From Chiloscyllium plagiosum (lineage: Eukaryota), in assembly GCF_004010195.1 (NCBI RefSeq), contig NC_057753.1, positions 3,627,514 through 3,691,513 on the forward strand: a stretch of DNA of 64,000 nucleotides, in the 5' to 3' direction. Position numbers and translations under genes: made by a program. The notes under the pieces were generated by a model. That model was not told where the DNA came from. It saw only the letters and a list, made by a program, of their open reading frames with translations, and made no database searches. Within the stretch, counting starts at the first letter, position 1. The number at the start of each line of letters is the position of its first letter. Of this stretch, positions 3-63,976 are shown piece after piece.

Positions 3-476
3 ACCTCACAGGCTTGGGCCGCATATGATTTGATTCGTTCCATTCTGGTCCCCTGTCTTCCATTCATTCTGATTTTACTGCTCAATGCTCTGACAGTCAG
101 ACATATTTTAGCGGCCAATCGAGCACGCAGAAGACTTCGTGTCCTGAGCAATGGAGAGGATCGGACTGATCCAGAGTTGGAAAAACGGAAGAAGTCCATT
201 ATCTTACTCTTTGGCATTTCAGGCAGTTTTGTTCTGTTGTATTCAGTATATTTTGCAACAGTGCTCTATGTCCGAATTGCGAAAGTTACTTATTACTCAG
301 TTTCTAACTCTCGCAAGTCATCCTTTATCCTGGAGGAAACCGGGTATATGCTTCAGTTTCTGAGTTCCTGCATAAATCCGTTTATTTATGCGGGGACCCA
401 GAATAAATTCAGAGACGAGTTAAAGAATGGGTTAAGATATCCACAGAGATTGCTTGTACAACTTTTAAAGTGCTGA
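3..476 (+). CDS. GPR139-like: GPR139-like class A GPCR, copy 1, 3' part of coding exon 2 (TM5-TM7 and C-tail); 5' part lies outside the window
   Basis: Open frame from base 3 (TSQAWAAYDLIRSIL...PCLPFILILLLNALTVRHIL...DPELEKRKKSIILLF...GYMLQFLSSCINPFIYAGTQNKFRDEL) to TGA 474-476; aligns colinearly with copies 2-4; NPxxY present. Confidence 0.85.
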   Translation, partial: TSQAWAAYDLIRSILVPCLPFILILLLNALTVRHILAANRARRRLRVLSNGEDRTDPELEKRKKSIILLFGISGSFVLLYSVYFATVLYVRIAKVTYYSVSNSRKSSFILEETGYMLQFLSSCINPFIYAGTQNKFRDELKNGLRYPQRLLVQLLKC

Positions 477-1701
477 TACTGCAGGCACAATGGCTGAAAG
501 CTTCCAATTGTTTATCCTCATTCAGCCACGCAGTCAGGTGCCACCAAATGGTTATTCAGCGCCACCTCTTTCTCCATACAAGGCGGTCTAAATTGGCCAG
601 AAATTCACCTGGTGCTTTACCGAGTGAAAAAAAAAGAGTCTGGTCAACCTCGCCAAGTTCGAATTATGTATAGATTTAGGAACAGCCTTTCTTCTGCCTT
701 CTGCAAAGTCTCATTTGTCAATGTCCCTTTCCGGTTATTTATGCCTTCGAATGGAAATCTGGCTGATTGTGTAGCATAGCAGCGCCAACGCCACTGGTGT
801 TTCGTCAGAGAGTCTGACCTGCTCATTTGCCTGGAGAGGACTTAATTTACCAAGCTTTACAATAGTGAATTCCATATTTAAGTGCTATGATCAGACAAAC
901 TTCAATGGAACTGAACATCGGGATTTGCTGTGGAGTAATAACGCACCAAAATGCTTGATCACCACGTGCTCTACTGGTAATAAAAAAATGATAATTCTGA
1001 TGTAAATGTAATTATGTCCTACTTCCGTGCTGCTCAGTGACACAAGTTGGTAACGGAGTCGAAAAGAATAAGATGTTTAGAGATGTGAAAATTAGCATTC
1101 CATATTAACATACAATCTTGAGATACAATTTCACATGGCTGCTGTTAATTGTCTTCTAAATCTATGATTAGTTTACACAAAGTGATAGTTCAAGCCATCT
1201 ATATTTGCTTTCACATGCAATGTAGATAGCTGGCATTTCAATTTAAATTCAAAATTTATCCAAGATACATCAGAATGAATTCTCAGTTTAGCAGAGTAAA
1301 ATATGCCATTAATCAAAGCTATTGATAAAATCACCACAGTACAATATCGTTCAACAGAGCTTTGAGCAGTCCAGCAGAATGGGAAGATATGGTTCATGTG
1401 TGGGGCCGCGCAATGACATGGATAATGAAAGAAAGTTTAGAAGGGTTTCTCACATTGTTCTGACATTGTTACAGATGATGTAAACAGATTCCATGTGGGA
1501 AGGGGAAGAGGAAGATTTATAAACTGTCGTGCATTCACAAAAGTCGGTTTCACTAACTTGTGGAATGTACATAAATCAGTTCACACAGTCCTCAAGCCCA
1601 CCGAGATAGCAGACTGCCGGTAGGACAAGGCTGTGTTCGGCTTTCCTGCTTTGCATAGAACTTCATTCACACCTTCAACTTGCCAAATCACAGTGTTACA
1701 A

Positions 1702-2047
1702 GGGAAGGCGAGTGCCTCATGCTATTACCACTTGACTGTTAATCCAGAGACCCGGATAATGCTCTGAGCACATTGGTTCGAAATAATGCAAGAAATTCAC
1801 AGCACACATTGTAATTTGACTTCAACATTTTTTTTTCTGGCATTAAGAGTCTATTGACAACGAATCCATTGCAGATTGCTCAATTAAAAACAAAAACTCC
1901 ATCTTGATGACCTTAGAGAAAGAAAACTTAGTCCTTCACTGCTCTTGCACACATGTGGCTATTAACTGCCTTCTGGACAATTTTGGATTAGCAATAAATG
2001 CTGGCCTAGGCAGCGACGTCCTCAGCCCATGCATGATTTGTTTTAAA
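1702..2047 (+). mobile_element. Degraded tRNA-derived SINE (second shark SINE family); inverted paralog at ~28030-28332
   Basis: tRNA-like head (...gactgttaatccagagaccc...ggttcgaa) and 3' gcaataaatgctggcctaggcagcgacg...cccatg; a second head fragment at ~2128-2200. Confidence 0.55.
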
Positions 2048-3149
2048 TCTTGAATATTCCAAGATACAAGACCTCCTCGATAGTAGTGACGTGCACACAT
2101 ATTGATAGCGTGGGGAGGTAATTTCATCAGGAGAGGCGATGGCTTGTTAAGGTGGAGACCTAGATAATGTTCTGGGGACTTGGGTTAGAGGCTGATTACC
2201 GTCGCTGTTCAACTGAATGTACCACATTTGGTGAGACTTTCAGTCCGCCCGGTAAAGGCTGGTTCCTACCAACCTCCCTTTGTGGTTGTAAAGTAGTCCT
2301 TTAGCAATTTCATCGAAAGCCTTATCCTAAAATGGTTTTGCCATAACTCATTCAACTAGATCATTAAAACCCCAAAGTCATCCAGGAATACTGAATGCTT
2401 CCTGCTGATGGTCTTGCTCAGATCCTGAACGCAACTCGAAAAGGAACATCAGTCCTTGGAAAAGTGCCTAAAATAACATTTGATCAAAATTGCTACAAAT
2501 AATTAAGCGTGCACAGATGCAATACTAATTTATTAGCTTCAATTACTTGATTTCCTATTAAAATAGTTACTTGCTTCAGAAAATGCACAGCTTAAACTAA
2601 TTAGATATGTTCAAAAAAGTACGTCTCATGTCCTTTCACAAGTCGAGGATCCCATCACCACAATGGAGCTCTGCATTAATTTCCTTGACAGCAGTCACAA
2701 ACACACTCGAATGTTAAGCCTAATTAAAGTCCAAACTTTTTTTGTTCTTGGAGGTCAGAAATAATTCAAAGTATCTTCGGAAAACAGTCTGTTCTCGCGC
2801 ACATTTTCATTCTTCAACAATTGCTTATTTTATGCCTATTTAATGCCTTAATGATATGGTTTGAAGGTGTCATTTTTGATATCATGCATTACTACAACTT
2901 GGCAAATCGTATATTTGTTGAGAGATGCACAGGGCAGAAAGGCATCTGCGGCCAATCTCGGCAAGCTTTCAGTATTGATCATTAGTCAATCCATATGACA
3001 ACGGCTCAGTGGCAATATGATTCCTTACCATTCTGAGACTGTACATTTACTTTAGTACAATTGCTTACAGTGTGCCAATTCCAGTTGAATACAGATGTGT
3101 GCTGTCGGCTTAGAGCAACATTCTCACATCTACGTTCAGTGCGAGTTTG

Positions 3150-4510
3150 TTCAGGTCTCTGGTTTCATATCCAAATACGGTGAGTCGACATATGTTTCAG
3201 ATGTAAAAGAAGGAAATGTAAGAGGTTGGGGAGTTGCATTAATGGTAAAGGAGCATCTGAAGGCTGCGCTGAGGGAGCATATATCAGAGCACCAGATAAC
3301 GAGGCAATATAGGTAGAACTCAGGAATAGGAAATATGAAATCACGATGCTGAGCCTCCCAACAGTCAGTGAGACACGAAGGAGATACTACATAGATATAT
3401 TTTGGAAAGATGTAAAAACAGCATGATTATTGTAGAGAGTGATATTAACTTCCTCTATCGTAACTAGGACTCACTTTGTGCTCATAGCTAGATTGCGATT
3501 GAATTTGTGAGGACCATTCAGGAGGGTTTCTTGACACAGTATGTCAACAGTACAACCAGGTTAAGGGGTTATGCTCGCCTGGTTTTTGGGAAATAAGCTC
3601 GGCCAGGTGAGTGAAGTTTCAGTGGGGGAGAATTTCTTGCAGTGTGAACATAATACCGTGAGATTTAAGGTACTCATAGGTAGGTAAAACAGCAGTTATC
3701 GGGTGAAAGTGTTAAATTGGGGAAGGTGAACTACAACAACATTAGGCAGGAATTGGAGAATGTTGCTTGACGTCTATTGTTTGAAGGTAAATCCACTTCT
3801 GGCATGTTGGAGTATTCCAAACGCCAGGAGTGGCACATTCTTGAGAGAATGAAAGATTAGTATGGCAAGTTACGTGAACCTTAGATGATGAGGCATGTCA
3901 TGATCTTGGTCAAAAAGGAAAAAGAAGCAGACATAAGGAGCCGGAGGATGGGAACAGATGAAACTGTTGAATTATATCAGAAAAGTGGGAAAGAACTTAC
4001 ATTAAATAATCGGAAGGGCTAAAATGGTCATGAAAAGTCGTTATCAAACAGGATTAAGCAGAATCCCAAATCTACCTGCACATGTATGAAAAGCAACAGG
4101 GTAGTCAGGGAAAGTGTTGGCCCACTTAAGAACAAAGGAGGGAATCTACTTGTGGAGCCAGAAGAGGTAGCTGAGGTCCTAAACGAATACGCTGTCTTGG
4201 TACTCACTAAAGGAAAGCACTTGTTGTAGGATGATCTCAGGGAACGGAGTGTCGAATTTCTAAGCCAAGTCGCTCTTAATAAGAAAAAGGTGTTGTGCAT
4301 CTTTAAAAAGTATTAAACTGGATGGGTGGCCGGGTCTTCATGAGAGCTATCCCAGAATATTGAGGGAGGCAAGACAAGACGTTGCTGGAACATTGATTGA
4401 CATCTTTGGCCACAGATGATGTCCCAGGGGACTGAAGAGCAGTGAATAAAGGCACATGGTTTCATAAGGATAGAAGTAATAATCCAAAAATCTACTGTCC
4501 TGTGAGTCTC
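3150..4510 (+). mobile_element. Degraded CR1 LINE ORF2 fragment (AP-endonuclease and linker)
   Basis: Decayed motifs GGGVALMVKE, VELRNRK, GDxNFP, NPKxxxxYxKSKRVVRExVGPLK; many stops and frameshifts. Confidence 0.8.
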
Positions 4511-4686: not shown

Positions 4687-4980
4687 GGGTAGTATAGTGG
4701 CTCAGTGGTTAGCACTGCTGCCTTACATAAGCAGGGTCCCAGGTGCGATTCCAGCCTTGGGCGACTGTCTACGTAGAGTTTGCAACTTTTTCCCCGTGTC
4801 TGTGTGGGTTTCCTCCCACAGTCCAAAGATGTGCAGGTCTGGTGAATTGGCTATGCGAAATTGTCAATAGTGTTGGATGCATTAGTCAGAGGGAAATGGG
4901 TCTGGGTCGGTTACTCTCCCGAGGGTCGGTGTGGACTTGTTGGGCCTGTTTCCACACTGTAGGGAAATATAATCAAATCA
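4687..4980 (+). mobile_element. HE1/V-SINE, diverged copy
   Basis: gtggctcagtggttagcactgctgcct head, V-domain gtagagtttgca...ccccgtgtctgtgtgggtttcctcccacagtccaaagatgtgcagg, tail gggcctgtttccacactgta. Confidence 0.85.
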
Positions 4981-5455
4981 GTTTTACAATGGTGTTGAAT
5001 TCTTCATGACCCTTTATTAGATTGTAAATTGCACACGATCCCGAACAAATGCATTCATCTGTGACGTTGTTTCCAAAGTGTGAATTCGGAGTAGAAGGGG
5101 AAATATCTACTTGCAGCAAAGTTCCAAGTAAACATTGAGTTCTCGAGAATAACAGGGAAAGGGGAGAGCAGAAATGCTGCATATCGAGTGGCCAACTGGC
5201 ATTGTGCCAAGCAGCAGAGTAATGCCACAAATCACAGTGCGATAGGAGTTCAGGTAAAATCAACTGGTTTGAGAGTGATCTCAGTGAATTAGCAATGATT
5301 CTGAGATTCTATGGCAATGGAAAGGTAATTGGGGAAATGACAAGAATCGATTACAGTTTTCATGCTAGAACTTGGGAGCCCTAATTGGTTTTTGGCAACT
5401 CTGCTGATGCACAAACATGTTCCCAGTGAAGAACAACATTTGTGATTTCCGTGTA

Positions 5456-10179: not shown

Positions 10180-13027
10180 ACAAATTAAGGATACAACTTC
10201 AGTTCTGGCTTATTATGAGAAGCAGCTGGGTCAGTTAGTACTGATTGTAGTTTAAAACTGGATGCAGCGAAATTGAATGAGAGAGACTCAAACTAATTGG
10301 CTCAGCATTTTTCAGTTAGAAAACGGCTGCCAGAGTGAAGTACTAATTTAATGCCCAGAAGATGCTCAGGAAGGTCTAAGCCCTATCAAACGAAATAAGG
10401 TCACCTTTCATGTTGACCAGGAATAAATTCTACAAATCTGTGAGGCCTGCTCAGTGCCACTTGCCTAAAATGCAAAGTAGACACAGAAATCAGGAGGCTG
10501 GAAAGTGAAGGAATCAGAAAACCAGGGCAGCTTGCAAAATGGGCATCATTGGTTGTAAAAATTCTGATGCCCGATGGATTGGTTCACATTTGTAAGGATT
10601 TTAATCAAATGGTAAGCCACTTTTCGCATATGAGTAGATATCCAACCCTTTGCATAGCAGAATTATCTGCAAAAATGGTGATGGAGAGCCCTTAACGTAG
10701 CTGGACATGATCAATGCATACTGAGGATTCCCAGAAATATGCTGCAATTAATACCCATTAAGCATTGTACCATTATACGGGACAGTTTTGTTGGGTGTCA
10801 TCAGCCTGTCTGTCATTTACAATGGACGATGGGAACATTTTAAAGGTCTCCCTCCGGTCGCCACTTATGTGTGCTTATAACGGAGAAGATCCTTTGGATA
10901 ACCAGGACATAGTACATAAACGTTTCTCCAAATAAGGTGAAGCCATAGGAGGTTAAACAAAAGTGTGTTCCAGGCACCCATTGTCATCTATTGTCAACAG
11001 TACCAGGACACAACATGTTGGAAGATAAAGCGAGGTCAATTACATGTACTCTGGCTCCCACGTCTCTAAAAGATTAGATCTTTCCTTGAATTGGTGAATT
11101 ATTACACAAAATTCAGAAATAACCCCGTCTTCATCCTGGAAAACATGCGTTTAGAATTGAAAAATATCAGTTGTGAAAATGCTCTCTTAACGAAGATGTA
11201 ACCTTCAGGGAAGTGAAGAAGCACTACCGTTGGCACTGTACATCCAAAGTGAGGTGAAGTACTGACATGCGATTCCGCGACCCACCCCCCACCCCCACCC
11301 CAAAACCCGTACAATATCTGGGGTGTTAGTTCACCAGTGGCCGGAGGAAGAGAAAGTCAGATTGTATATGCTTCCCAGACTTTGGCGGAGACCAAATAAA
11401 ATACACCCAGGTAGTGGACGAAGTATGAGAAATTTCCACCAATAACTTTAGGCATATCGATTTGCAATAGTTACATACCACAAGCCCCTCCTCGGGCTGC
11501 ATACAATGGGCAGGGCATGGCTACCCATAATGACAGGTCGATATCTGCGGTGGGCTCTTGTTTTGAGGGCGCACAATTACAAGTTAGAAAACCATCCGGG
11601 AGGCCATGTGGCAAATGCGGATTAATTGCGTCATTTCACACTGGCGGATACACAAACAGTGCTGGTAATGAAATGAGAAAAGTCTGTTGTGGTTTTAATT
11701 TTTCGGGACAACCTATTGGTCATCACTGATAATATCAGTCTAAACCTAAATTGATCTCGCCATTGCAATATTGAAACAGCTGTTGGTTATGAGCGAAATG
11801 AAAAGGACATCACAATCAGAATTAAAACCTTTCTGGACCGGGGAACACCAGATCATCATTGAGATTGTTACATCGTTATGGGGAACAAGAGTAATTGGCT
11901 CGAGTAAAGATCACAACCAGACACTGAGTCATCCCGGGGTTTCGAAAATGAAGATGCTGGCGGGAAGTTCCGTCTGGTAGCTAGGATTGGATGCAGAATA
12001 TCGACGTTTTTGCACCAAAGCCCAGAGTGCCAACAAGGACAAAAATTAAAACCCTAAGGTCCCACAAATCTCTGGGAATGCCGGTACACAGTGGACTCGG
12101 TTACATGTCGAGTATGCAGGTCCGCTCATGGATTCTATGTTTAAGTCATTTTATTTGTCCTTTCAAAGTGCATATAATTTATTCGTCAAATATGGGGATG
12201 ACATTTGAAACTCTGCGAGCATCTTGTGCAATAATCGGACACACAGACACAGACAGGGGTCATCATTTACTAGCAGGGATTCCTAGTATTTCCTCTGATT
12301 GAATGACAGTTCCATACCATCCATTTTACAATGGTCTGGTGGAGATTGCAGTCCGATCTTTGAAGGGATGCTGAACGAAAATGTCAGCAGCATCATTTAG
12401 TATCAAACAGTCCCAGGAGTGGCAAGACAGGCAGTTCTCAACATGCATGCGGACCACATGAAAAGTGCAACCTCGCAAATCTGGAAAAAAAGCAAAACAT
12501 ACCCGACCTCTCAGAACATGCAGCAAGGCTGTCACAGTCCACGGGTTTTCCTCCTCTGCACAGCGCTAAAGAAACGTCCGAGGGAGAAATAGATAGGGCA
12601 GATGTTACAGAATCAAAACTGTTACCACCTGAAGGAGATGAATCTCATCTGAGACGTTTAGGCGTAAGTATAAGGCTCAAGTCTAGTTCCCATCACCAGT
12701 AGCTGATGCAGAGTGGGGAAGCTGGAAAATGCGCCAGGAGGAACTGAGGCTGCAGAAAACAGCATGGGCCTCCGTCTCAGGATTTGGAGAGGTAATGCAT
12801 GTGGAGATTGGAATGAGGCAGCCAGTTCGTAGAACATAAATTGCCTGATTGGGGTTGTTAACCTAGTCCAATAAGGGAGTCCTGGCTCACAAAATAAACA
12901 GCAGTGTCTGGGCTTCTGTTCAATCTCGGAGCCACCTCTAAGCTAGCTAGATCATTGCCATTTAGTATGCACATGTAAATAAACGGCAACTTAGTGATGC
13001 GATAGCAGTCTTCGTGGAGTAATTTCG
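10180..13027 (+). mobile_element. Decayed Gypsy (Mag/K02A2.6-like) LTR retrotransposon: RT-RNaseH-integrase remnants plus 3' LTR (~12800-13027)
   Basis: Remnants of KLD...AY, INTH..LY.Y....GVSSA, TDHKPL, HPGVSKMKMLA...VW; LTR begins TGTGG after a purine tract, has AATAAA at ~12978 and ends ...gtggagtaatttcg. Confidence 0.75.
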
Positions 13028-13473
13028 GCCTTCACGCTGTCCATATCCATTATTCCCTGTCTATTCATGCATCTGCTAAGATTCACCTAAAAACGTCACA
13101 AACGTTCATCAGTACATTTCGTAATATTAGTGTTGAACTGACCTTTGTAATTTGAAATCAAACGTTCTAAGCATAATCATCTCAATGCAAAATATCTGTG
13201 CAATACAAGACCTGCGTATGACGAAAATAATTGCTTTATGATAGATGTGACAACACTGAATGCAACTTTGCCGCATATCTCATTTCACGTTAATATGTTG
13301 AGCAGAGGTGTGCATGTCACGTCATAATGCAGATTTACTCAACTGGCGATGTCCTAAATAGATATCACTGTGCTGATTTATTAGACTTCACATCGATTTT
13401 AACGTTGATGGACTGGAACAATCCGTACTGAATTTAAACATGATGAAGCACATCTCAGCATATGGATTACAGA

Positions 13474-13697
13474 CAAAAGCAAGGACTGCAGATGCTGGAA
13501 ACCAGAGACTAGATTAGAGTGATACTGGAAAAGCACAGCAGGTCAGGCATCATCCGAGGTTCAGGAAAATCGACGTTTCGGGCAAAAGCCCTTCATCAGC
13601 CCTTCCTGATGAAGGGCTTTTGCCCGTAACGTCAATTTTCCTGCTCCTCGGATGCTGCATGACCTGCTGTGCTTTTCCAGCATCACTCTAATCTAGA
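13474..13697. mobile_element. Palindromic Penelope-derived element with two head-to-head hammerhead-like motifs
   Basis: Inverted arms of ~90-100 bp around 13602; approximate TSD catat(g)gatta(c/t)aga at 13459-13473 and 13698-13711; absent from the paralogous site near 36215-36230. Confidence 0.8.
13571..13599 (-). ncRNA. Minimal type-I hammerhead ribozyme motif (Penelope type), putative
   Basis: Minus strand reads CUGAUGA-A-GGGC-UUUU-GCCC-GAAA-CG-UC: intact core, 4-bp stem II and palindromic ACGU in place of stem III. Confidence 0.6.
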
Positions 13698-14168
13698 CAT
13701 ATGATTATAGATGCATAGCACTAAACCCAAATCACGCTGTACTAAATTTAATTGTCGTGACATTGCAACAAAGAACCCTGAAAATAACCAAGTTGAGAAC
13801 ATCTTAAACCCGTCGTCCTGGACCAATATTTTACTGGATCTATATTGACTAGGAGTATGTTGCACCTTAATCATGAATCAACGCATAGAATAATGGGAGA
13901 ACCTGACTTTGCTTGCGTTGAAATATTCACTTATCCCATTAAAGTGTCAGGAAAACGCTATTGCGTTGGATATGACACCAATATCCAGGTAACAATGATT
14001 TTTAGAACGAAACACAATCTTGATCGTCGTGTAATCACTTAGCATGTGACTTCAGGTCAATTTTAGGCTTCGTGAAATGATTCCCAATTCTATTGAAAGG
14101 GCAGCCAAGCAGAAACTGTACGTAACGACTTATGGCTTTAAAGCCAATTATGGTAAAACGTAAATCTA

Positions 14169-14216
14169 ACTAATTAACTCCCTGGAGCCTGTATTGCATA
14201 TGCAACCATGTATAAA
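14169..14216 (+). promoter_or_regulatory. Putative core promoter of copy 2: homeodomain site TAATTAA (14171-77), O/E-like CTCCCTGGAG (14178-87), TATAAA (14211-16)
   Basis: 23-bp ACTAATTAACTCCCTGGAGCCTG identical in copy 3; TATA 57 bp upstream of the ATG. Confidence 0.55.
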
Positions 14217-14267
14217 TGTAGCCACGTTTCGATGTTTCATGGAAAATGCTGAGAACATCTGTCAGAA

Positions 14268-16808
14268 ATGCATGAAATACCAAGAGGTTTAGTTTTTGCC
14301 ATTTACTATCCAGTCCTTGCAGTTATTGGTCTTCCAGGTAAATGTTGTTAGTTTAAACTGCAGAGTTATTGTTTAGCTGCATCAGTTCTCCTGTTTTACC
14401 AGTAACACTTCACCACATCACGAATATTGTTTCTGCTATTCAATAGGATATAATGTTTGACTTTAACATTGTGATGTGTGCCGTGGAAGGTGCATACTCT
14501 TTGGATGACATTTCTATCACCTTAAAGGCAATAATAGTAGAAATGACTTACGATGGCAATCCAGTTCAATTATAGTATTGGTAACAATATATTAGTTAAA
14601 TTACCGAGCAATTAATATCTTGCAAAGTGGATACATTGCAGCTTTGATACTTTTTCAGCTGACTTTTCATGTGATCATTGCAATTTCGTTTCTTTTCCAC
14701 CATCGTTCAAACGTACATATTGATTTGTTATGCAATTTTCTTGGAAAGTAAGGGGCAATACGTATTGATTTATCATTGCTTGAGTGGCTTGAACTGTTGA
14801 ATAATTTTTATCCACATTTAATGACTGATTTTATTTGATAGGGAACAATTTCTTTTCGAAATGTTCAAAGATGTGTAACAATATTCTATTTGCCTTTTAA
14901 GCGAAGATTGGAATTTGCCACTGATGCACAGAGCACAGTTGTTTTTCTTTCATTCACTGGTGCTCGCATTCTCCTGGTGGCTGTTCTTGATGGCTCTGAT
15001 ATGATGATTGCCGATGTGGAATTTCCACCAAACTCCCAGATATTGCAATGTCTTAGACTGTTCCTAGTTTTGTTGTTCTCCCAATATTGAATGAATCTCT
15101 AGACTTTTAGCATCAGTTGTATTGCAATTACAAGGTTTAATTTTGTCAATGCAAATGAGAAAGGAGACGTTATTTATTTGATGGTGAAATGAAACACTGA
15201 TGAAATGGTACACTTTAGGTTGGTCTTTCGCTGAACAAATTCTCATCACCAGACAGTTCCAATTGTTTATATCAACAACAGAAATGACACGTGACTCTCA
15301 CATGAACAGTTTTATTATTGAACCAATCCCAGAATGAAGTTGGTGAGTTGCATATTGCAAGTTTGTTTCCAATGTAATATTCAAACGTTCAATGCATGCT
15401 TTTCCAACAGTGGAAACCATAACATGAACTCATCGAAACAGCCACGTTTGATCCAAAATTAGACATAATCCATGTTTTTCGTGGTTGTCAAATTATTGTT
15501 GGTGTTTTGCAGACGACCTCCTTCAACATATCCTATGTTTCATTGTTGGTATGATTTTGATTTACTGCAGTATTTATATGCTTGTGATATATTACATTTA
15601 TTTTTAAAGTTTATTCTTGGTCTGAGATTTTTGCCAACTAAATATAGTGATGAATTGTTGCTGGGTGAATTGTTGCTGTCCACGAAGATTTCTAAATACT
15701 TTTCCTTGTAGCATCATGAATTTGTTTTAGAGTTCATCTACGCTTCAATGTTTAATTTAAAAGTCAATTGTTCATCACGTAAGGAATGATGTCCCAATGA
15801 TGGTTCCCTTCTCAAATCTTGCATCTTCTCAAAAAATCCTGTAAAATTACAAACTTGATTGTGGTCCGAGCCACAAACACTCTGATTGCAAATCACGCTC
15901 TATTTTTCTTACAGCTAATGTAGCAGTGATTACAATCCTGTCTCGAAGAAACTGTGGTCTCTCAAGATGCATTGCTTACTACCTGGTGTCAATTGCAGTG
16001 ACAGATCTCCTCGTCATGGTCACAGCTGTGATTTTAAATCGGATTGCTGGCATTTATTTCCCATCCAGTTTCCTTTCGATCACACCAGTATGCAGTTTCC
16101 GTGCTGCATTAAATATGGCAGTCATTGACAACTCTGCCTGGTTAACAGTCGCTTTTACCTTTGATCGATTTGTGGCTATATCTTGCCAGAACCTGAAAGT
16201 AAAATATTGCACCAAGAAGGTGGCAGCATGGGTGATAGGAGTAGTGTCTACTCTTTGCTGCATGAAAAACATTTTCATATATTTTGAATTTGAACCTAAG
16301 TATGTAAGTAACGATGTACCCTGGCTGTGTAACATAAAGGATATATGTTATACATCACCTGCTTGGGCTGCATATGACTGGATCCGTACTATTCTAAATC
16401 CTAATTTTACTATTGAACGCGCTGACTGTGAGACGCATTGTCTTGGCCAATAGAGCCCGTAGGAGACTCCAGCTTCAGAAAAATGGAGAGACTGAATGTG
16501 ACCCAGAGATGGAGAAGCGGAGAAAGTCCATTATTTTACTCTTTGCCATCTCGGGCAGTTTCATTCTCTTGTATGTGTTATTTTTCATTAATATTCTCTA
16601 TGTTCGAATTGCAAATATTACTTATTCCTCAGGATCCACTTTGCGTAGTTCCACATTTTATTTGGAGCAAAGTGGATATATGCTTCAGTTATTAAGTTCC
16701 TGCATCAATCCATTTATATATGCTGTGACGCAGAGCAAAATTAGAGATGAATTAAAGAATGGAGTGAGATTTTCATTAAACCTATTCATTAAATTACTTA
16801 AATATTGA
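14268..16808 (+). pseudogene. GPR139-like: GPR139-like GPCR copy 2, probable pseudogene: exon 1 14268-14337, intron 14338-15914, exon 2 15915-16808 with frameshift at ~16400
   Basis: Exon 1 MHEIPRGLVFAIYYPVLAVIGLP-G|gtaaat; acceptor ttttcttacag|CT; relative to copy 3, 17 nt (CGTGTCTACCTTTCATT) are missing in TM5, giving a premature stop at 16451-16453; the remaining C-terminal half is intact in the other frame. Confidence 0.85.
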
Positions 16809-17389
16809 TAAGTGGATAGTAAAAAATAATTTGTATACTATAGGGCAGCGCATCTTTCTTTTGACATTTAGCTTCACAGAAGGGCCTTTTCAGACATTGT
16901 CTCAGTGGGTCAATTTAGAAACGCACGAGGAATGTTGTAAGAGTATAAAAGCCAATTTGTTTGCAGTTAATTTCCAATTTCCCTGCTTATTCAGGATTTT
17001 TCCAGAACGCTGATGATAAGAGTTGAATTCACTATGTAAGTCAGTCAAGAATGATTGCTGTCAATTATTATTGTGCATTTTTTCCTATCAGGTGGGTATT
17101 GGGAATGGGTGCAACCATTTTTTTCATTCCTAATGCCTGTCTCCAATCAGAAACATAGCTTTAATTCTGTCCATCTGTCCGATACCTTTGCCCAGAACTG
17201 CATAAGTCTTTGTAGCTATGTCAAATAGACACAGACCTCCGGAGCAGCAGCTGCAGCTGCCGTCAGGCTGATGAGTCAAGAGTCCTGTCATCATTCTGAC
17301 ACTGGGTTTCACTCGATATCCTTTTGCATTTCAAATAATAGTCACACTCGTGATTCACTGCCCTTGTCAGCTGCTCAAATATGACTAAA

Positions 17390-18530
17390 ACAGAAACGTA
17401 GACAATAGAGCAGGAGTTGATTATTATTCCCAACGAGCCTTTCATTTTGTAAGAATCCTTACAGCGTGTAAGCTTACCATTTGGTACATCGAGTCCACAC
17501 CTATCTTTTGAAGAGCATCCCACACCAACCCCTGGCCATCCCCGTGGCCAAGCCTCCTAACCAACATGTCTTTGGAAACTATATGCAACTTAGAATGGCC
17601 AACCCCTCAAACATCCTTACACTACAGGAATAAGCCGGAGCACCAGTGGGAAGCCCACGTAAACAATGGGAGAATTTGTGAGCTCCATACAGATAGTCAC
17701 CTGAGGGTGGAATCCAACTCATGCCCCTGGTGCTGTGAGTCAGCAGTTTTAGCCACTAATCCACCGTGATTATGGCTGCCAATCTAACTCAATCGTCTCT
17801 TCCCCCTTTCAACACATACCCTTTGATCCGTTCGGACCTAACAATTATTTCTGACTCCTTCTTCAAAACGTTCCCCATTTTGATGTTAACCGATTTCAGT
17901 GGCAAAGAATTGTACACGGTCACCGCTCTCTCTGAGTGACAAAGTTTCTCCGCATCTCAGTCCTAACTGGCCTACTTTGGTTATCCTTCTTTCCTTGGTC
18001 ATTTGGAGCATCCTTTGGGAATGTACCCCTATCTCGTCGAAAGGACAAAGTGAGGACTGCAGATGCTGGATGTCAGAGGAGACAGTGTGGTGCTGAAAAT
18101 GCACAGCCGGTCAGGCAGTATCTGAGGAGCAGAATCGACGTTTCGGCATAAGCCTTTCATCAGGAATGAGGCCTCCTGCTCCTCGGGTGCTGCCTGCGTA
18201 TCTTTGCTATTCCATCACTATATTTTCGATCCTATCTAGTCGTGCGAGAGTTTCATTGGTTTCTTTGAGATAGCACACCGTCCTCCAATTCTTTTAAAAG
18301 CTGGACACAAAACTCTTAACACATCCAATCTCTATTCATGCGTCCGTTCTCCAGTGATAGAAATTGTTGGACCCGCAATTTAGCCAGAACACCCTTCCTC
18401 AGATAAGGAAATAAAAACTGGATCAGCGCTACTGCAGCAAGGCATCGCATTCCTGATGTCAAGTCCTCTCACTATGAATGCTAACCTTACCATTTTTCTT
18501 GTTTGCACTTGCATGCTTGCTTTCAGTGAC
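17390..18530 (-). mobile_element. Degraded CR1 3' end, interrupted by a V-SINE (~17450-17768, minus) and a Penelope palindrome (~18046-18230); paralog of 31090-32040
   Basis: 3' UTR acagaaacgtagacaatagagcaggag, ccatttggagcatcctttgg, cacccttcctcagataagga (W.P.L.K region); colinear with the inverted arm. Confidence 0.7.
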
Positions 18531-19321
18531 TAAACAAAAATACCTCTTCTCCAGAAAGAAGTCCAAATGAAGAACAGCGAGAATCAGCCAACTAAATTAT
18601 TTAATTGGGCTACTTTATTTACTTCACTCATCTGACTTTAAATCTGCAAACTGAATGTCGTTTCCAGTTTGAATCAAATTTCCAAAACTAGTCTATCAGT
18701 AATTCGCTCGCCGTTGGTTACGCTTTGCTGAGATTTCACTACGCTGAGGTTGACAATGATGCATTTGTCCAAAATGACTCTCTCACTCCGCCTAAATGCT
18801 CTTGCAAGTTTCGTGAGTGGAATATAATCCACCTGCGTATTCCTAGGCCTGTCGTCAATGTGTTGAGAGGTTTGGTCTGCGATGGAGGATGTTGCATTCC
18901 ACAAACAAGCAGCATGCCACTGTTTGACGCTGCAGTCATCGATTTCTATCTGCAGTGGTGGATTACTGCACGTGGAACAAAATGCTGCTTGTCCCTATCT
19001 CATTCAGTTGGAATCAAAGAAGGAAATATCATTGAAGTGTTTGTTTGACTTCAATCTCTTCATAAATTCGTAGTGGGTTAAATGTCGATGCATGTTGTGT
19101 GTAACCCTTTGATTGTTGCATTGGAAATATTCAGGCAATAAATATGCCTGTTTGTGTCTCACGGGATAAGAATCAAGCTGGGAATGAGAGAAATCTTCTT
19201 GCAGCCAGAAGTCCCATTTGACTATATAGGAATCTGTCACTGTTAACTCTGATAGGGAAAGAGGAGGGATTTCGACCCTGGAGCTCCAGATAAAAACCCT
19301 TTTCAGTGTACAGTCGTTGGT

Positions 19322-19631
19322 GGGCGGCACGGTGGCACAGTGGTTAGCACTGTGGCCTCACAGCGCCAGAGACCCGGGTTCAATTCCAGTCTCAGGCGAC
19401 TCTCTGTGTGGAGTTTGCACATTCTCCCCGTGTCTGCGTGGGTTTGCTCCGGTTTCCTCCCACAATCCAAAAATGTGCATGTTAGCTGAATTGGCCATGC
19501 TAAATTGCCCGTAGTGTTAGGTGAAGGGGTAAATTTAGGAGTATGGGTCTGGGTGGCATATGCTTCGGCGGGTCGGTGTGGAATTGTTGGACCGAAGGGC
19601 CTGTTTCCACACTGTAAGTAATCTAATCTAA
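19322..19631 (+). mobile_element. HE1/V-SINE, near full length, young
   Basis: gggcggcacggtggcacagtggttagcac (A box) ... gggttcaattcc (B box), V-domain, (taatc)n tail. Confidence 0.92.
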
Positions 19632-20225
19632 ATCAGCTGGTCAATTACGCCTCAAAGACAGGGGAAAAGTAACCTGCATGATCCCTAAGGCAGCGTGTCA
19701 GCGAATTACTGCTTGTTTCTGGTGTTTGGATTGGTATCTGTCCTCGTTGAGTTTTAATCATCTAAGGTGAAGGCATTAATGTCGAAAACATTTGTACAGC
19801 CTGATCCCTTGTCACTGGTTGCCCATCCAGCTATCCACTTCGAGTCTTTCTGTTTGCTCTCAAAATCTGAATGTTCCGAAGCCTGGATGAGGTTTGGATT
19901 TCTCATAATCAGGAGCGAGAATACTTTCAATATCTCAGATCAGCTAATGTCACTGAGAACATCAGACTTAATTATTCAGCGTCCTAAAGAAACGATGTGT
20001 ACCTTAACTGTTTGGTGACGTCAGGGCTGTTGTCTGATTCTCGTTCCAAGACTGTTTTGAAAAGATCAAAAAAACAGGAGATTGGCATTCTTAATTTCTT
20101 CATTTTCGACTTCCCACCCTGATAACTGACGATATTTCCCAAAATCTGGCTGCAATTCTTCACTTTGCATCATATCCGAGCAAGGGGCTTTTGGAGAGAA
20201 CCGGGAAGCTGGGGTTGTTATCTGG

Positions 20226-21599: not shown

Positions 21600-24500
21600 G
21601 TAACATCATGCCTTTATCCAGCTACCAAAATTACTTCGTTTGATCCTTTCAAACTCAATGTGAATTTGACCAGGTTCCTCGTTAGATTCTTGATACGTTG
21701 TCTCGAATCTCCTGGCACAGGAGCACATGGACTTGAGATGATCGCTTCACCTTCTCATACGCTATAGATTCCTCCTCTGATCGTGATGCCAATACCTCAC
21801 GAGTTGTGATTAAGAGTTTTGTTTGCATCAACAAAACCTTCATCGCCACTGGTCACTGCATTTTTTTCGTCAACTTTTCAAATGAGTTGAAAAAGGTATC
21901 CACGTCCTTTTCATCAAAATTAGTCAATGTTTGAATATAATTAAAACAAATTCTCACCACTGCATTGGCTATCACAGGTTAGCGCCTCTTCACTGTCTGC
22001 TGCACTAGGCTTACTTTCAGCCTTCATCAACATCCTTTTAAGCTGACTTTCCTGTCTCAGTGCCAATTTCAGAAGTTCAAACTCTATCTCTTTCTTCCTG
22101 TCGTCTCTTTCCTATTCTTATTCTTCTCGCTTTCGTTCTTTTTGTCTGCTAAAGCGATTCGTTATTTTCTTCTCCTTCCTGTGTTCCAGTCTTTCTGTCC
22201 TTTTCCTTTTGTTCAGCTGAAAACCTTCTTCGCATTTCTATATCTTCGAACATGGCACTTCTCTCCCTTTCTTTATCTTCTAACTCCTGCTGCCTCACTT
22301 GAAATTTAAAACTTTCCATCTCCACTGTGGTTGGTTATTTATCCGATTGACCCAAGCACTTAACCGATGCCATTACATTTCACCTTTCATTCTGTCCCTG
22401 GTTAAATCCAATTCTAACCTTTTTCCTCATCCTGCGTCGTTCTAAACTGCCTTAGCAAATTTGGGAAGCAGCTTCAAACGCCAGAACATCTTGAGCAATG
22501 TTCAGAGCCCTTTCCAAAGCTCTAACTATCTTTCAAGCACATTTAAACGTTGGGCTATTTCGGTAATAACCACAAAGATTTCCCGTGACATCGGCAATTC
22601 CAGTTCCAGCCTGAATGCGAATTCCAGTAGTTTTGTATTGTTCACCTTTTGTAAAACCCCCAAAGTCACTTCTTCCATCCCAGAAACCTCGCAATGACTG
22701 ACAAAGTCATTGCTATCACAGTCATATATAAACGAAATAAAATCAACACCAAGAGCAAAAGACACTAACACTGCCTTCCAGTCCAGAAACCCTAATACCA
22801 AATCAGAAAAGTAGAACAAGTCCAGACTGAGGCCCCAGTCTGTTTTGGACAAGCCAGAACCCCCTCAATACAGCTAAAGAAGGCATCTCACACCCTACAT
22901 TTTCTATTTGTTTTTGGTAGGTGTATGGTGGGTATTGAAGGAGTGATGCAGCTGCTCAAAAGCCCTCAAATTTAAACAAAAAAGAGTACCCAATTAAACG
23001 CAAACGAAAGAGAACAGAATAGAGAATAACTTAATCTAATCGGAAAAAAAATTGAAGCTATTCCAAATTCCTGCAACAGACCCCATAAACACACCCTTGA
23101 CAAATATGTAAAATCAGACACACGTCCTTCGAGGACAATAGACAATAGACAATAGGTGCAGGAGTAGGCCATTCAGCCCTTCGAGCCTGCACCGCCATTC
23201 AATATAATCATGGCTGATCATTCCTAATTAGTATCCTGTTCCTGCCTTATCTCCATAACCCTTGATTCCACTATCTTTGAGAGCTCTATCCAACTCTTTC
23301 TTAAATGAATCCAGGGAGTCGGCCTCCACTGCCCTCTGGGGCAGAGCATTCCACACAACCACCACACTTTGCATGAAGAAGTTTCTCCTGAGCTCTGTCC
23401 CAAATGGTCTACCCCGTATTTTTAAGCTGTGTCCTCTGGTTCGGCACTCATCCATTAGTGGAAATATGTTTCCTATTGCCAGAGTGTCCAATCCTTTCAT
23501 AATCTTATACGTCTCAATCAGATCCCCTCTCAGTCTTCGAAACTCAAGGGTATACAAGCCCAGTCGCTTCAGTCTTTCAGTGTAAGGTAATCCTGCCATT
23601 CCAGGAATTGACCTCGTGAATCTACGCTGCATTCCCTCAATAGCCAGAATGTCTTTTCTCAAATTTGGAGACCAGAACTGCACACAGTACTCCAGGTGTG
23701 GTCTCACCAGGGCCCTGTACAGCTGCAGAAGCACCTCTTTGCTTCTATACTCAATTCCTCTTGTTATGGAGGCCAGCATGCTATTAGCCTTCTTCACTAC
23801 CTGCTGTACCTGCATGCTTGCCTTCATTGACTGGTGTACAAGAACACGCAGATCTATCTGTACTGCCCCTTTACATAAATTGATTCCATTGAGGTAGTAG
23901 TCTGCCTTCCTGTTCTTGCCACCAAAGTGGATAACCATACATTTATCCACATTAAACTGCATCTGCCATGCATCTGCCCACTCACTTAATTTGTTCAGGT
24001 CAACCTGTAATCTCCTAACATCCTCATCACATTTCGCCCTGCCACCCAGCTTTGTATCATCAGCAAATTTGCTAATGTTATTGCTGATACCATCTTCTAT
24101 ATCATTAACATATATTGTATAAAGCTGCGGTCCCAGCACGGATCCCTGTGGTACCCCACTGGTCACTGCCTGCCATTCCAAAATGGAGCCGTTTATCACT
24201 ACCCTTTGTTTCCTATTAGCCAACCAATTGTCAATCCAATCTAGTACTTTGCCCCCAATACCGTGCGCCCTAACTTTACTCACTAACCTCCTGTGTGGGA
24301 CTTTATCAAAAGCTTTCTGAAAGTCCAGGTACACTACATCTACTGGATCTCCCTCGTCCAACTTCAGAGTTACATCTTCAAAAAATTCACGAAGATTAGT
24401 CAAGCATGATTTCCCCTTCATAAATCCATGCTGACTCTGTCCTATCCTGTTACTACTATCCAGATGTGCAGTAATTTCATCCTTTATAATAGACTCCAGC

Positions 24501-24936
24501 ATCTTTCCCACCACTGAGGTCAGACTAACTGGTCTATAATTACCTGCTTTCTCTCGCTCACCTTTCTTAAAAAGTGGTATAACATTAGCCACCCTCCAAT
24601 CCTCAGGAACCGACCCCGAATCTATTGAACTCTGAGTGAACGATGACAGGGAGAACTCGAATGGGATCACCTTCCACTGTAGCTATTTCTTTGGAATTCC
24701 CAGTTGAAACTGACCAACAGCTCTCAATGGCCAGAGAGTTAATGCTAATGCTGATCACAGAAAAGCTGTGCTGGGCGAACTGGCCACTTCTCTTTCATCG
24801 TACATGTGCATTTATTTAACTTAACATTTTCCACAAGTAGATAAACCAAGGCATCTCGGAACCCACGACTTTATGAACCCTCTTTAAAATATTATCAAGG
24901 ACAACGTAACCTTTTTGCAGGATCAGCACTGCCACA
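21600..24936 (-). mobile_element. Truncated Gypsy (Gmr1-like) LTR element: 5' LTR 24936-22841 (split by a CR1 insertion), degenerate tRNA-Pro PBS ~22821-22840, decayed gag 22800-21600
   Basis: LTR termini TG...CA resembling the LTR at 44450-45076; PBS-like actggggcctcagtctgga; gag remnants FDEKDVDTFFNSFEK...P...LLMQTKL and RQR..NL...PGQ..IEFERIK. Confidence 0.7.
23134..24634 (-). mobile_element. Young 5'-truncated CR1 LINE with uninterrupted RT and C-terminal ORF (23228-24670 track ORF) and (tgtctat)n tail
   Basis: About 470 stop-free codons: [71 protein letters not shown]; tail gacaata x3 at 23134-23155. Confidence 0.95.
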
Positions 24937-32946: not shown

Positions 32947-33857
32947 TCAATACTTAAATATATTAATAAATATGTTCAAAGCAAATCTCCCTCCATTCTT
33001 TAACTCATCTCTAATTTTGCTCTGCGGCACAGCATAAATGAATGGGTTGATGCAGGAACTCAATAACTGTAGCATGTATCCCGTTTGCTCCAAATAAAAC
33101 ATGGAATAACGTGATGTAGATCCTGAGGAATAAGTGATATTCGCAGCTCGAACATAGAGAATATTTAGGAAAAATAGCAAATATAACAGATTGAAGGTGC
33201 CCGAAATGGAAAAGAGCAAAATAATGGACTTTCTCCGCTTCTCCATCTCTGGGTCACACTGATTCTCTCCATTGTTCTGAATCTGAAGTGTCCTACGGGT
33301 TCTATTAGCCGAGAGAATGCGTCTGATGGTCAGCACATTCAGTAGTAAAATTAGAATGAAAGGTAGACACGGATTTAGAATAGAACGGATCCAGTCATAT
33401 GCAGCCCAAGCAGATGATGTATAATATATTTCCTTTAAGCTACAAAACCAGGGTATACTGTTAATTTCATACCTAGGTTCCAATACAAAATATAAGAAAC
33501 TGTTTTTCATGCAGCACAGAGTAGAGACTACCCCTATCACCCACGCTGCCACCTTCTTAGTGCAATAATTTGCTTTCAGGTTCTGGCACGATATAGCTAC
33601 AAATCGATCAAAGGTAAAAGCGATGGTTAACCAGGCGGAGTTGTCAATAACTGCCATATTTAGTGCAGTGCGAAAACTGCACACTGGTGTGATAGAAAGG
33701 AAACTGGATGGGAAATAAATCCCGACAATCCGATTTAAAATTACAGCTGTGACCATGACCAAGAGATCTGTCACTGCCATTGACACCAAGTAGTACATGA
33801 TGCACCTCGATAGACCACAGGTGTTTTGAGACAGGATTGCAACCACTGCCAGATTAG
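32947..33857 (-). CDS. GPR139-like: GPR139-like GPCR copy 3, exon 2 (gene 35664-32947, 326 aa, intact)
   Basis: Acceptor ctttcttacag|CT AAT; open frame with DLL (TM2), TPVC, FTFDRF, PWFC, PCLPF, NPFIY; stop at 32947-32949. Confidence 0.9.
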
Positions 33858-34846
33858 CTGTAAGAAAGGTAGAGAATGAGTTTTAGTAGGAGCATTTGTC
33901 CTTCCGACCACAGCCACGTTTACAGGATTTTCTAAGCAAGTGTGAGATTTGAAATGAAAATCTTAATTGGGACATTATTTCTCAAATGACAAATAATTAA
34001 TTTTTAAATTAAACATTGAAATGCCGTTTAAATAGAAACCAAATTCATGATGCAGCAAGGAAAAATACTTAGTTACGACTCATCCCAGAGTGAGTATACG
34101 TTTTAAAAATGCATTTAATTTATCGCAAACATATCAATAGCAAACTGAAGCAAAATCACATTGAAAAATAAAACGTAGACTATGTTGAAGGGATAGGTTA
34201 CAAAACACCAACAATGAGATTGGAAACTAACAATAAAAATGGCTCCGTTTTAATGAATTGTTGGAATCATTTTCACTGTTGGAAAAGCAGGCATTCGACT
34301 TGTTGAATATTATGTTGGAAAGAAACTGACACATCGTAACTCTCCAAATTCATGCAGGACATGCTGGGATGGAGACAAGAATGCAGCTGTTCATGTGACA
34401 ATCATCTGTGATTTTTGGTATTAATGCTAACCATTCGAACTGCTGCTGATCATTTATTTATCTTAAGAACTTCCTATAGAAATTTATCAGTGTTCCTTTG
34501 TATTGTCAATGTAGATAATGATTTCTTCCTCATTTTCATTTTCGAAATTAAGGCTTCAAAATGAAATACAATTGATGCCAGCAGATCGATGGATTTACTC
34601 AATCTGTGAGGAACAGCCAAGTTAGAAATAGTATAAGACATTGACAGATTCTGGAATCATGTGGAAATCCCAAATCAGCAGTCATCACATTAGAATAATT
34701 AGAAACAGTGAATGCAGAATGGGAGTGCAATCCTAAAACAGTAATCATTATGGACTGAAAACAGTAATCTATGATCTGTGCATTAGTGCCAACTTCCAAT
34801 CTTCCTTTAAGAGAAAATAGAATATTGCTATATATCTTGGAAAATT

Positions 34847-35157
34847 TGATTAGATTAGATTACCTACAGTGTGGAAACAGGCCCTTTGGCCCAACAATTC
34901 CACACCGACCCTCGGAAGAGCAACCCACCCAAGCCCATTCCCCTACATTTACGCTTCACCTAACAGTCTGGGCAATTTAGCACGGCCAATTCACCTACTC
35001 TGCACATTTTTGGACTGTGGGAGGAAGCCGGAGCAAACCCACACAGACACGGGGAGAATGTGCAAACTCCACACAGACAGTTGCCTGAAGCGGGAATTGA
35101 ATTGGGTCTCTGGCGCTGTGAGACAGCAGTGCTAACCACTGTGCCACCGTGCCGCCC
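34847..35157 (-). mobile_element. HE1/V-SINE inside the intron of copy 3
   Basis: Reverse complement of the 19322 element; (gatta)n tail at 34847-34862; absent from the copy 2 intron. Confidence 0.92.
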
Positions 35158-35594
35158 ATTTCGAAAACTAATTATTCACCTTCAATAAAATCAGTCATTA
35201 AATACCGATGGAATATTTTCAATAGTTCAAACTACTCAAGCAAAACTCACTCGTGGTTATTACCTCGTACTTCCAACGAAAACTGCACGATAAAACTGCA
35301 TACACTTCGGGATGACTGTGGAAATAACCCCCAAAATTATCTAAAATGTGAGAATAACGGGAGAAGTCACCTGAATAAGTATCAATGCCACAGTGGATCT
35401 ATTTGGTAATGCATGCAACATCGTGTTGCCACCTCAAAAGTGGAATTGGGTTGGCAGTGTGGCAGTACTTATAACTCATTTGCGTTATAGTTGCCTTGAA
35501 TACAGTGGAAATGTAATACAAAAACTATGCGTATTCAACATATCAAAGTGTTGAAGTCAAACGTTATATGCAGTTTACACTTGCAACATTTAAC

Positions 35595-35664: not shown

Positions 35665-35714
35665 TTCTGACAGATATTCAGAGCACTTTCCAAGAATCAT
35701 CGAACGGGACAACG

Positions 35715-35762
35715 TTTATACAGGGTGATATATGCATTGCAGGCTCCAGGGAGTTAATTAGT
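35715..35762 (-). promoter_or_regulatory. Putative core promoter of copy 3: TAATTAA + CTCCCTGGAG + TATAAA
   Basis: Identical 23-mer to copy 2 with the same 40-bp TAATTA-to-TATA spacing; TATA 56 bp upstream of the ATG. Confidence 0.55.
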
Positions 35763-59187: not shown

Positions 59188-59215
59188 TTCCCAGGAGTCC
59201 TTAATGATCTATAAC
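59188..59215 (+). promoter_or_regulatory. Putative core promoter of copy 4: O/E-like TTCCCAGGAG (59188-97), homeodomain TAATGA (59202-07), TATAAC (59210-15)
   Basis: TATA-like box 56 bp upstream of ATG 59266, the same spacing as copies 2 and 3. Confidence 0.45.
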
Positions 59216-59265
59216 AAGGACTAAATAGAGTGAAAGGTAGAATGCAGAGAAGGTCGTTGATAAAA

Positions 59266-59335
59266 ATGCACCAAGTGCCATCAGGCCTGCTGTTTGCCAT
59301 TTACTATCCCGTGATTGCAATGATCGGAGTTCCAG
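59266..59335 (+). CDS. GPR139-like: GPR139-like GPCR copy 4, exon 1 (70 nt; an in-frame ATG at 59242 could add 8 aa)
   Basis: MHQVPSGLLFAIYYPVIAMIGVP-G|gtaaaa; homologous to exon 1 of copies 2 and 3. Confidence 0.85.
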
Positions 59336-63059: not shown

Positions 63060-63976
63060 CTAACTTTGCCGTGATCATGATTCTGTCTCGAAGCCGATGT
63101 GGTCTCACTGGGTGTATCACGTATTACCTGGTTTCTATGGCGGTGGCAGATCTTCTGGTTATGATAACAGCTGTAATATTAAACCGGATTGCTGGGATTT
63201 ATTTCTCATCCAGTTTCCTGTCGATCACACCCGTGTGCAGTGTTCGTTCCGCCCTAAATATTGCAGCAATTGACAGTTCTGCCTGGTTAACGGTAGTCTT
63301 CACCATGGATCGATTTGTATCTATTTCCTGTCAGAAGCTGAAAATAAAATACTGCACCAAGAAAATGGCATCACGCATCATAGGAACCGTGTGTATGCTC
63401 AGCTGCGTAAAAAATATCTTTATCTCCTTTCAATTGGAACCTAGATACGTAATTGACAATATACCCTGGTTCTGTAACATAAAAGATATAATTTATACCT
63501 TTCCAGCATGGATTGTCTATGCCTGGATATGCTCTATATTAACCCCTTTCCTCCCATTCATTCTGGTTTTGCTGCTCAATGCTCTGACTGTCAGACACAT
63601 TCGAGTGGCCAATAAAGCCCGTACGAGACTTCGGAACCAGAACAGTGGCGTGAATCTGATTGACCCAGAGATGGAAAAGCGGAGAAAGTCCATTGTGTTA
63701 CTCTTTGCCATCTCAGCCAGTTTCATTCTATTGTATGTGGTGTCTTTTGTAACAATGCTTTATGTCCGAATAGCAAACACAACTTATTCCTCAGGTTTAG
63801 ATAACCGCAATTTTGTATACATTCTCCAACAAAGTGGATATATGTTGCAATTATTGAGCTCCTGCATCAATCCTTTTATTTATGCTGGAACCCAGCGAAA
63901 ATTCAGAGATGAGTTCAGAAGTGGCGTTAGATGCATCCTTAGATACTTTGTCAAACTATTTCTTTTTCGCAAATAG
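63060..63976 (+). CDS. GPR139-like: GPR139-like GPCR copy 4, exon 2 (gene 59266-63976, 328 aa, intact)
   Basis: Long pyrimidine tract and ttacag|CT AAC acceptor; ADLL, TPVC, TMDRF, PWFC, PFLPF, NPFIY; TAG 63974-63976. Confidence 0.92.

Follow-up and report, generated by a model that had tools for sequence, protein, structure and literature searches.

A probable conserved promoter element with homeodomain and EBF-like sites at GPR139-like receptor genes of a shark

Gene copies and their arrangement

The window, that is, the whole stretch of 64,000 nucleotides that was analysed, has a GC content of about 41%, is shark-like in character and carries remnants of LINE and SINE elements. It harbours four copies of a two-exon class A G-protein coupled receptor (GPCR) gene, numbered 1 to 4, and in each copy whose beginning is visible (copies 2, 3 and 4) the first coding exon measures 70 nt. 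The coding features are the following:

3..464, plus strand: copy 1, exon 2, 3′ half only, with its promoter outside the window
14268..14337, plus strand: copy 2, coding exon 1, 70 nt, followed by a phase-1 GT donor
15915..16808, plus strand: copy 2, exon 2, with a frame change near 16402-16416, so that the product ends at 202 amino acids
35595..35664, minus strand: copy 3, coding exon 1, 70 nt
32947..33857, minus strand: copy 3, exon 2, open spliced frame of 326 amino acids, Pfam 7tm_1
59266..59335, plus strand: copy 4, coding exon 1, 70 nt
63060..63976, plus strand: copy 4, exon 2, open spliced frame of 328 amino acids, Pfam 7tm_1

Copy 2 is either a pseudogene or the product of an assembly error. 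Copies 2 and 3 belong to a single inverted duplication that is old and spans at least 7 kb (12989-20141 versus 36706-29749); it aligns piecewise at 70-77% identity, with the intron and both flanks included.

Several repeats accompany the genes. About 470 nt upstream of the promoter block of copy 2 described below, the copy 2/3 alignment is broken by a near-perfect inverted repeat (13509-13696; arms of 91 nt, 92% complementary, loop of 6 nt), which looks like a small inserted element. Moreover, a reverse-transcriptase-like open reading frame of 424 amino acids is found at 23228-24502 (minus strand), a LINE-like inverted pair of 3.4 kb at 76% identity joins 1224-4510 with 28797-25471, and a SINE-like repeat of about 310 nt recurs at 34845-35158, 19321-19636, 52946-53258 and 4697-4989, one of these repeats being located within the intron of copy 3.

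The receptor family

In the Pfam search, 7tm_1 was the sole domain above cut-off in the window copies. In a profile scan extended to E 1, the same domain was recovered in all seven proteins, and none of the seven was matched by the olfactory receptor (OR), V1R or taste-receptor profiles. In addition, signature motifs of ORs and TAARs were not found in copies 3 and 4. Membership of the OR, TAAR or V1R families was thus rejected, given the lack of a family profile and of OR/TAAR motifs and the presence of a coding intron. The extracellular N-terminus of the three window copies comprises only about 10 residues and holds no N-glycosylation sequon. Most ORs, unlike these copies, carry such a sequon in their N-terminus.

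Of 2498 candidates in a database search, 1314 proteins passed the E 0.001 threshold. The best 120 matches, at 56-71% identity, consist of 119 named shark proteins and one unnamed entry; most of them are RefSeq models of sharks and rays annotated as 'probable G-protein coupled receptor 139', and 86 of the 120 begin with the same exon-1 peptide (a short MH..IYYP N-terminus). Among ten mid-range matches that were looked up, eight came from sharks, skates or rays and two were unnamed. The best match of solved structure is human GPR139 (PDB 7vug/9m42), with E values of 9.6e-8 and 6.2e-7; as this match is weak, the window genes are not close orthologues of human GPR139. Outside the sharks, the nearest relatives (P0224, P0225, P0236 and P0272) belong to coelacanth, silverside and salamander, with 31-33% identity. 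Human GPR139 is further removed from the shark family than these GPR139-like proteins.

In a tree of 41 rows, among which true GPR139/142 proteins, ORs and V1Rs are not represented, all three copies fall inside a shark clade of 23 rows with support of 100/99. Specifically, the partner of copy 2 is a whale-shark protein (92%) and that of copy 3 an epaulette-shark protein (94%), which indicates that the duplication giving rise to copies 2 and 3 is old and predates the split of those species. The window genes, class A GPCRs with two exons, belong to a large, shark-expanded GPR139-like family that occurs in clusters of intact and broken copies.

An uncharacterised 'Orphan 139-like' group is listed in a table of a review, as far as the consulted part of that source goes (PMC5207463). 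No paper on a GPR139-like family in sharks, or on its promoter, was found in the literature searched, a collection outside which most subscription papers lie. Likewise, no 'GPR' passage was found in the portions consulted of a vertebrate chemoreceptor survey (PMC10869828) or of the catshark atlas text (PMC11979771), and the consulted portions of PMC13113109 and PMC8213819 yielded nothing on sharks. In a metagenome collection, a protein-family pattern gave 590 matches, none of which was confirmed, and an exon-1 pattern gave none.

A shared block upstream of copies 2 and 3

The region preceding the first coding exon of copies 2 and 3 contains the following features:

14169..14191, plus strand: copy 2 block, with TAATTA at 14171-14176, a 2-nt spacer and an O/E (EBF)-like 10-mer at 14179-14188
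14211..14216, plus strand: copy 2 TATA box, TATAAA, 57 nt before the ATG
35733..35762, minus strand: copy 3 block, formed by a 23-mer (35762-35740) and 7 further nt, with TAATTA at 35760-35755 and the O/E-like site at 35752-35743
35715..35720, minus strand: copy 3 TATA box, TATAAA, 56 nt before the ATG

A sequence-only reading of this DNA had pointed to an identical 23-mer at 14169-14191 (plus strand) and 35762-35740 (minus strand), placed about 40 bp upstream of TATAAA, and to a TATA-like hexamer 56-57 bp before the ATG in copies 2, 3 and 4. These observations hold: the 23-mer is identical and starts 42 nt before TATAAA, and the hexamer lies 57, 56 and 56 nt from the ATG in copies 2, 3 and 4, respectively. 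The block as a whole is located about 80-100 nt upstream of the start codon and the O/E-like site 77-89 nt before the ATG in the three copies. For copy 2, textbook spacing predicts a transcription start site at about 14236-14242.

The same reading had placed the 23-mer amid clearly diverged flanks, a description that the alignment does not bear out, since the upstream regions of copies 2 and 3 are 75% identical over 572 columns. This flank identity matches the neutral level, as estimated from fourfold-degenerate coding sites (44/61, 72%). When the alignment columns were shuffled 20,000 times, a longest run of at least 23 was obtained in 15-18% of cases (P 0.15-0.18), the next observed runs being 17 and 16; consequently, the 23-nt run taken alone lies within chance, and its length was rejected as a mark of significance.

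The stretch that copy 3 apparently shares exactly with a further paralogue, described below, extends 7-10 nt past the O/E-like site (35733-35739 and 14192-14204). This extension holds a segment containing ATGCA/TGCAT, palindromic (TTGCATATGCAA) in copy 2, which we presume could be a third, POU-like site.

Motif matches and their background frequency

The O/E-like site had been described as carrying a GGG>GAG change relative to the Olf1/EBF consensus. GAG is, in fact, permitted by the MatBase NOLF consensus TCCCyngrgar, as given in the consulted part of Young et al. (2011, PMC3247239), and hence does not represent a departure from it. The sites of copies 2 and 3 match the first nine core letters of this consensus and miss the next two, copy 4 has one mismatch more, and all three sites differ by 2 mismatches from the palindrome TCCCNNGGGA. 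Compared by eye, 9/11 letters are shared with the OMP Ebf probe.

In general, the single components are frequent. Sites with at most 2 mismatches to the EBF palindrome occur 181 times in the window (0.57 per 200 nt), homeodomain hexamers of the TAATTA/TAATGA kind are equally dense (0.57 per 200 nt) and TAAT reaches 2.25 per 200 nt. More restrictive patterns are rarer. TCCCWGGAG, a pattern chosen post hoc, is present five times in the window, three of them at the promoters of copies 2-4, against a shuffle mean of 1.05 and 0/100 shuffles reaching five. A rule requiring a homeodomain site, an O/E site and a TATA box together picks out four places, namely the three promoters and one other, versus about 1.0 in 15 simulated windows. 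Finally, the joint pattern TAATTR, 2 nt and EBF 10-mer, which is partly post hoc, is found in the window only at the promoters of copies 2 and 3, with 0.07 expected, and these two occurrences count as one evolutionary event. Looser definitions of the composite also match one or two non-promoter places per version (42261; 40324 and 51965); the match at 42261 (minus strand), devoid of gene or TATA context, was taken as chance.

The promoter of copy 4

The more distant copy 4 displays a different arrangement:

59189..59198, plus strand: copy 4 O/E-like site, homologous to that of copies 2 and 3, with 8/9 core letters and no upstream TAATTA
59202..59227, plus strand: copy 4 TAATGA (59202-59207), TATAAC (59210-59215) and TAAATA (59222-59227)

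The string reported at 59188-59207 reads as claimed. The region is homologous to the copy 3 promoter over about 150 nt (alignment score of 52 versus 36 for the best of 300 shuffles), and its O/E-like site retains 8/9 core letters at a neutral identity of 49-58% (P 0.017-0.056). The TAATTA of copies 2 and 3 falls in a 7-nt alignment gap and is absent, and the TAATGA of copy 4 lies on the opposite side of the O/E-like site, in a non-homologous position. In addition, TATAAC aligns 11 nt upstream of the TATAAA of copies 2 and 3, whose counterpart is TAAATA at 59222; the equal distance of 56 nt to the ATG is therefore probably coincidental. The alignment thus led us to reject homology of TATAAC and TAATGA with the sites of the other copies, TATAAC being probably not the homologous box. 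Accordingly, of the claim that one signature recurs in all three promoters, the part that stands is the O/E-like 9-mer shared by homology, whereas copy 4 is without TAATTA and its TATAAC is misaligned. From the sequence, the paired homeodomain site of copy 4 would have been lost or turned over, and the TAATGA on the opposite side may replace it.

Copy 4 also has an in-frame ATG at 59242, 24 nt upstream of the start codon of the family, and whether this ATG is transcribed depends on which of the two TATA-like boxes is used.

Conservation of the block in further paralogues

DNA contigs from two sequencing runs (X1 and X4, two samples of one study that is possibly the source of the window itself) were aligned to 35541-35900 at 80% likeness, with 51 and 60 contigs, respectively. 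Of the 66 variant rows, the 73 loose-end rows and the 117 pieces, 26, 59 and 101, respectively, lie outside the listed set, so that we infer, rather than read, the invariance of the block in other paralogues.

Outside exon 1, contig depth peaks at 35733-35756. In all three joints listed, a contig covers exon 1 and resumes its match only in a second piece, which starts at 35736, 35729 or 35740. The short sides of these joints measure 27, 33 and 23 nt and end at about 35761-35762, and the 23-nt one coincides with the 23-mer of the earlier reading, which had been fixed beforehand. Two of the three joints come from one run, so that at least two loci are involved. The chance that freely placed upstream pieces land on the block is 0.003-0.02 for two and 0.0002-0.003 for three.

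Moreover, copy 3 and a further paralogue have contigs whose ends coincide at 35733/35759/35762, with an overlap of 30 nt. This paralogue differs from copy 3 by 22 differences and 2 gaps over 148 nt (about 80% identical flanks); by the logic of an assembly built on 31-letter words, it apparently shares 30-33 nt exactly with copy 3, which at that divergence has a P of about 0.001-0.005. The contig depths add up if one short shared contig with a depth of about 32 is allowed. Among the variant places listed, 0/31 of those upstream fall in the 23-mer (P 0.023, two poly-A artefact rows having been dropped). These contig tests share ancestry and are not mutually independent. Two records were kept apart from the count: record 4 (X1) was taken to be copy 2 itself, whose differences it matches, and hence not an independent paralogue, and record 14 (X4), which spans the block and has about 15 of its 36 differences outside the listing, was not included among the invariant copies.

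Among the loose-end rows listed, about 15 exon-1 contigs per run continue upstream with no block match by a criterion of 80% over about 23 nt, a stringency at which a lone O/E 9-mer is invisible; at that stringency the full block is hence a trait of a subfamily. Constraint on the block thus appears to hold within a subfamily and for a small number of more distant copies. Conservation of the sites above the local background emerges from the paralogue contigs and not from the copy 2/3 pair alone. Taken as a whole, the block is very probably a conserved promoter element.

Likeness to the mouse composite

According to the consulted sections of Monahan et al. (2017, PMC5608512), the composite of the mouse Greek Islands consists of an Lhx2 site directly adjoining a degenerate Ebf site that is kept as runs of pyrimidines and purines, and an insertion of 2 nt impairs the binding of a fusion probe. 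The same sections report an enrichment of the composite in distant enhancers when compared with OR promoters. When set beside the Sfaktiria composite probe (supplement 7 of PMC5608512, as far as consulted), the shark block of copies 2 and 3, and of these copies only, has the same homeodomain, 2 nt, EBF spacing and register, with agreement in 9/18 letters and in 16/18 purine/pyrimidine classes, the purine/pyrimidine pattern being the property stressed in those sections. The HD2 composite of the J element (Iwata et al. 2021, PMC7804114, consulted in part), read by hand from a mutagenesis primer, appears in the same register. The mouse side of this comparison consists of one probe and one hand-read J-element site, as distinct from a composite matrix. 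The homeodomain and EBF promoter element proposed by the sequence-only reading hence gains independent support from the paralogue contigs and from the spacing of the mouse probe, while it is not the same signature in all three promoters.

Proposed mechanism and alternative explanations

In the mechanism that we propose, a homeodomain protein of the Lhx2/Emx2 type and an EBF dimer would bind the block together, and the occupied block would fire the TATA box 19 nt downstream. Transcription would start about 30 nt after the TATA box, so that the 5′ leader would be shorter than 30 nt and a non-coding exon would be absent. Copy 4 retains the EBF-like site and lacks the paired homeodomain site, for which TAATGA is a possible stand-in. 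Purifying selection would be the cause of the conservation of the block, and the genes would be on most likely in chemosensory neurons of the nose, which in sharks are microvillous and TRPC2/Go-positive. These steps are not equally firm. Binding of the block by homeodomain and EBF proteins is putative, and rather probable from its letters; the predicted expression of these genes in olfactory neurons could go either way. The full reading, by which the block, as a homeodomain and EBF element, would activate the receptor genes through the TATA box beside it and would do so most likely in chemosensory neurons of the nose, is in our judgement evenly poised.

Transcript data weigh in neither direction here. 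In two single-cell RNA runs of unlisted tissue (2% and 6% read), one (X5) gave four reads on 35785-35818, all of them poly-A artefacts on that A-rich stretch, and the other (X6) gave none. A catshark top-50 olfactory list is without GPCRs in the part of PMC11979771 consulted, which is uninformative if expression is sparse.

The identity of the cells is the point most exposed to an alternative. B cells, adipocytes and many neurons all make use of EBF proteins, homeodomain factors are likewise active in many cell types, and canonical GPR139 is a receptor of the brain. Given these uses of EBF, the strongest competing explanation is expression at another sensory or immune site: the block would be a real homeodomain and EBF element that drives other EBF-using cells, in an MRGPR-like or immune role, for example somatosensory or skin chemosensory neurons, lateral-line or electroreceptor cells, brain neurons or B cells. 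All the conservation evidence fits this explanation equally, but the very large, clustered class A families of vertebrates that evolve by birth and death are mostly chemosensory. The literature, within the portions consulted, also cuts both ways: 3805 sites across the genome are co-bound by Lhx2 and Ebf in mouse neurons (PMC5608512) and the ORs of the catshark were themselves not detected in its nose (PMC10116579), whereas the fixed 2-nt spacing is reported to be specific to OR enhancers (PMC5608512). We consider the use of the element in such other cells possible and, on the whole, unlikely.

The remaining explanations concern the block itself. It might be constrained by the binding of other factors and only resemble an O/E site, being an ordinary proximal element beside a TATA box. 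The two mismatches to the EBF palindrome, the abundance of TAAT and the continuation of the shared stretch past the O/E-like site to 35733-35729, over letters that the homeodomain and EBF model leaves unexplained, are in keeping with such a possibility, which the nine-letter match to the NOLF consensus, the letters shared with the OMP probe and the composite spacing render improbable. A block with no function at all, in which duplicate ancestry together with chance or short gene-conversion tracts left a motif-like identical run, deserves very little credence. The common origin of copies 2 and 3 in one inverted duplication, the unremarkable longest-run P and the persistence of the block in the frameshifted copy 2 would all fit; however, among the joints listed the block is the only upstream place where contigs of distant paralogues align again, it is apparently exact in a third paralogue, and copy 4 keeps the 9-mer.

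Implications for shark smell

The catshark has 34 V2R genes, 4-9 genes in each other olfactory family and ORs that went undetected in the nose, as reported in the consulted part of PMC10116579, and these counts fit poorly with the sense of smell for which sharks are reputed. With its many copies and an olfactory-type promoter element, the GPR139-like family is a candidate for the missing smell receptors of sharks. Tentatively, and with doubts exceeding our confidence, we advance that sharks and rays might smell largely via an unrecognised and very large GPR139-like family that uses the Lhx2/EBF gene-choice code of mammalian ORs, with an enhancer-type composite inside each promoter. If true, the composite would either predate the split of sharks and mammals or be convergent, and the view of a shark nose running on about 35 V2Rs would be overturned. 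In addition, the candidate family would provide a compact natural promoter (<100 nt) on which to test the Lhx2/EBF code across jawed vertebrates and in unrelated receptor families.

Comparison with known systems

With the GPR139/GPR142 group, the shark genes share the best structure match and the naming as 'probable GPR139', and they differ from it by their many-copy clade. As for the Greek Island composite, the consulted sections of PMC5608512 describe a demonstrated binding site in intergenic enhancers of mammalian OR clusters; the shark block is no such intergenic enhancer of an OR cluster, being instead proximal, 19 nt before a TATA box, attached to a non-OR gene and, as a binding site, putative.

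Mammalian OR and V1R promoters, in the parts consulted of Young et al. (2011, PMC3247239) and Michaloski et al. (2011, PMC3247230), also combine O/E and TAAT sites no more than 200 nt away from the presumed start, and likewise have AT-rich surroundings and, in a subset, a TATA box. Specifically, O/E-like sites are reported near the start sites of 246/314 (78%) mouse OR promoters and in 39/39 V1R promoters examined, and a TATA box in 39% of mouse OR promoters, most being without. The presence of O/E-like sites in V1R promoters means that the code is not limited to ciliated neurons, a point of relevance here, since the olfactory neurons of the catshark all appear to be microvillous in the consulted part of PMC10116579. 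The gene structures differ: OR genes have an intronless coding region and introns in the 5′ leader, whereas the shark genes have a phase-1 coding intron after 70 nt, their promoter appears to abut the ATG, and their proteins are not ORs. In conclusion, the design is known from studies of mammalian OR and V1R promoters and enhancers, and its presence on a non-OR, GPR139-like family of sharks is new.
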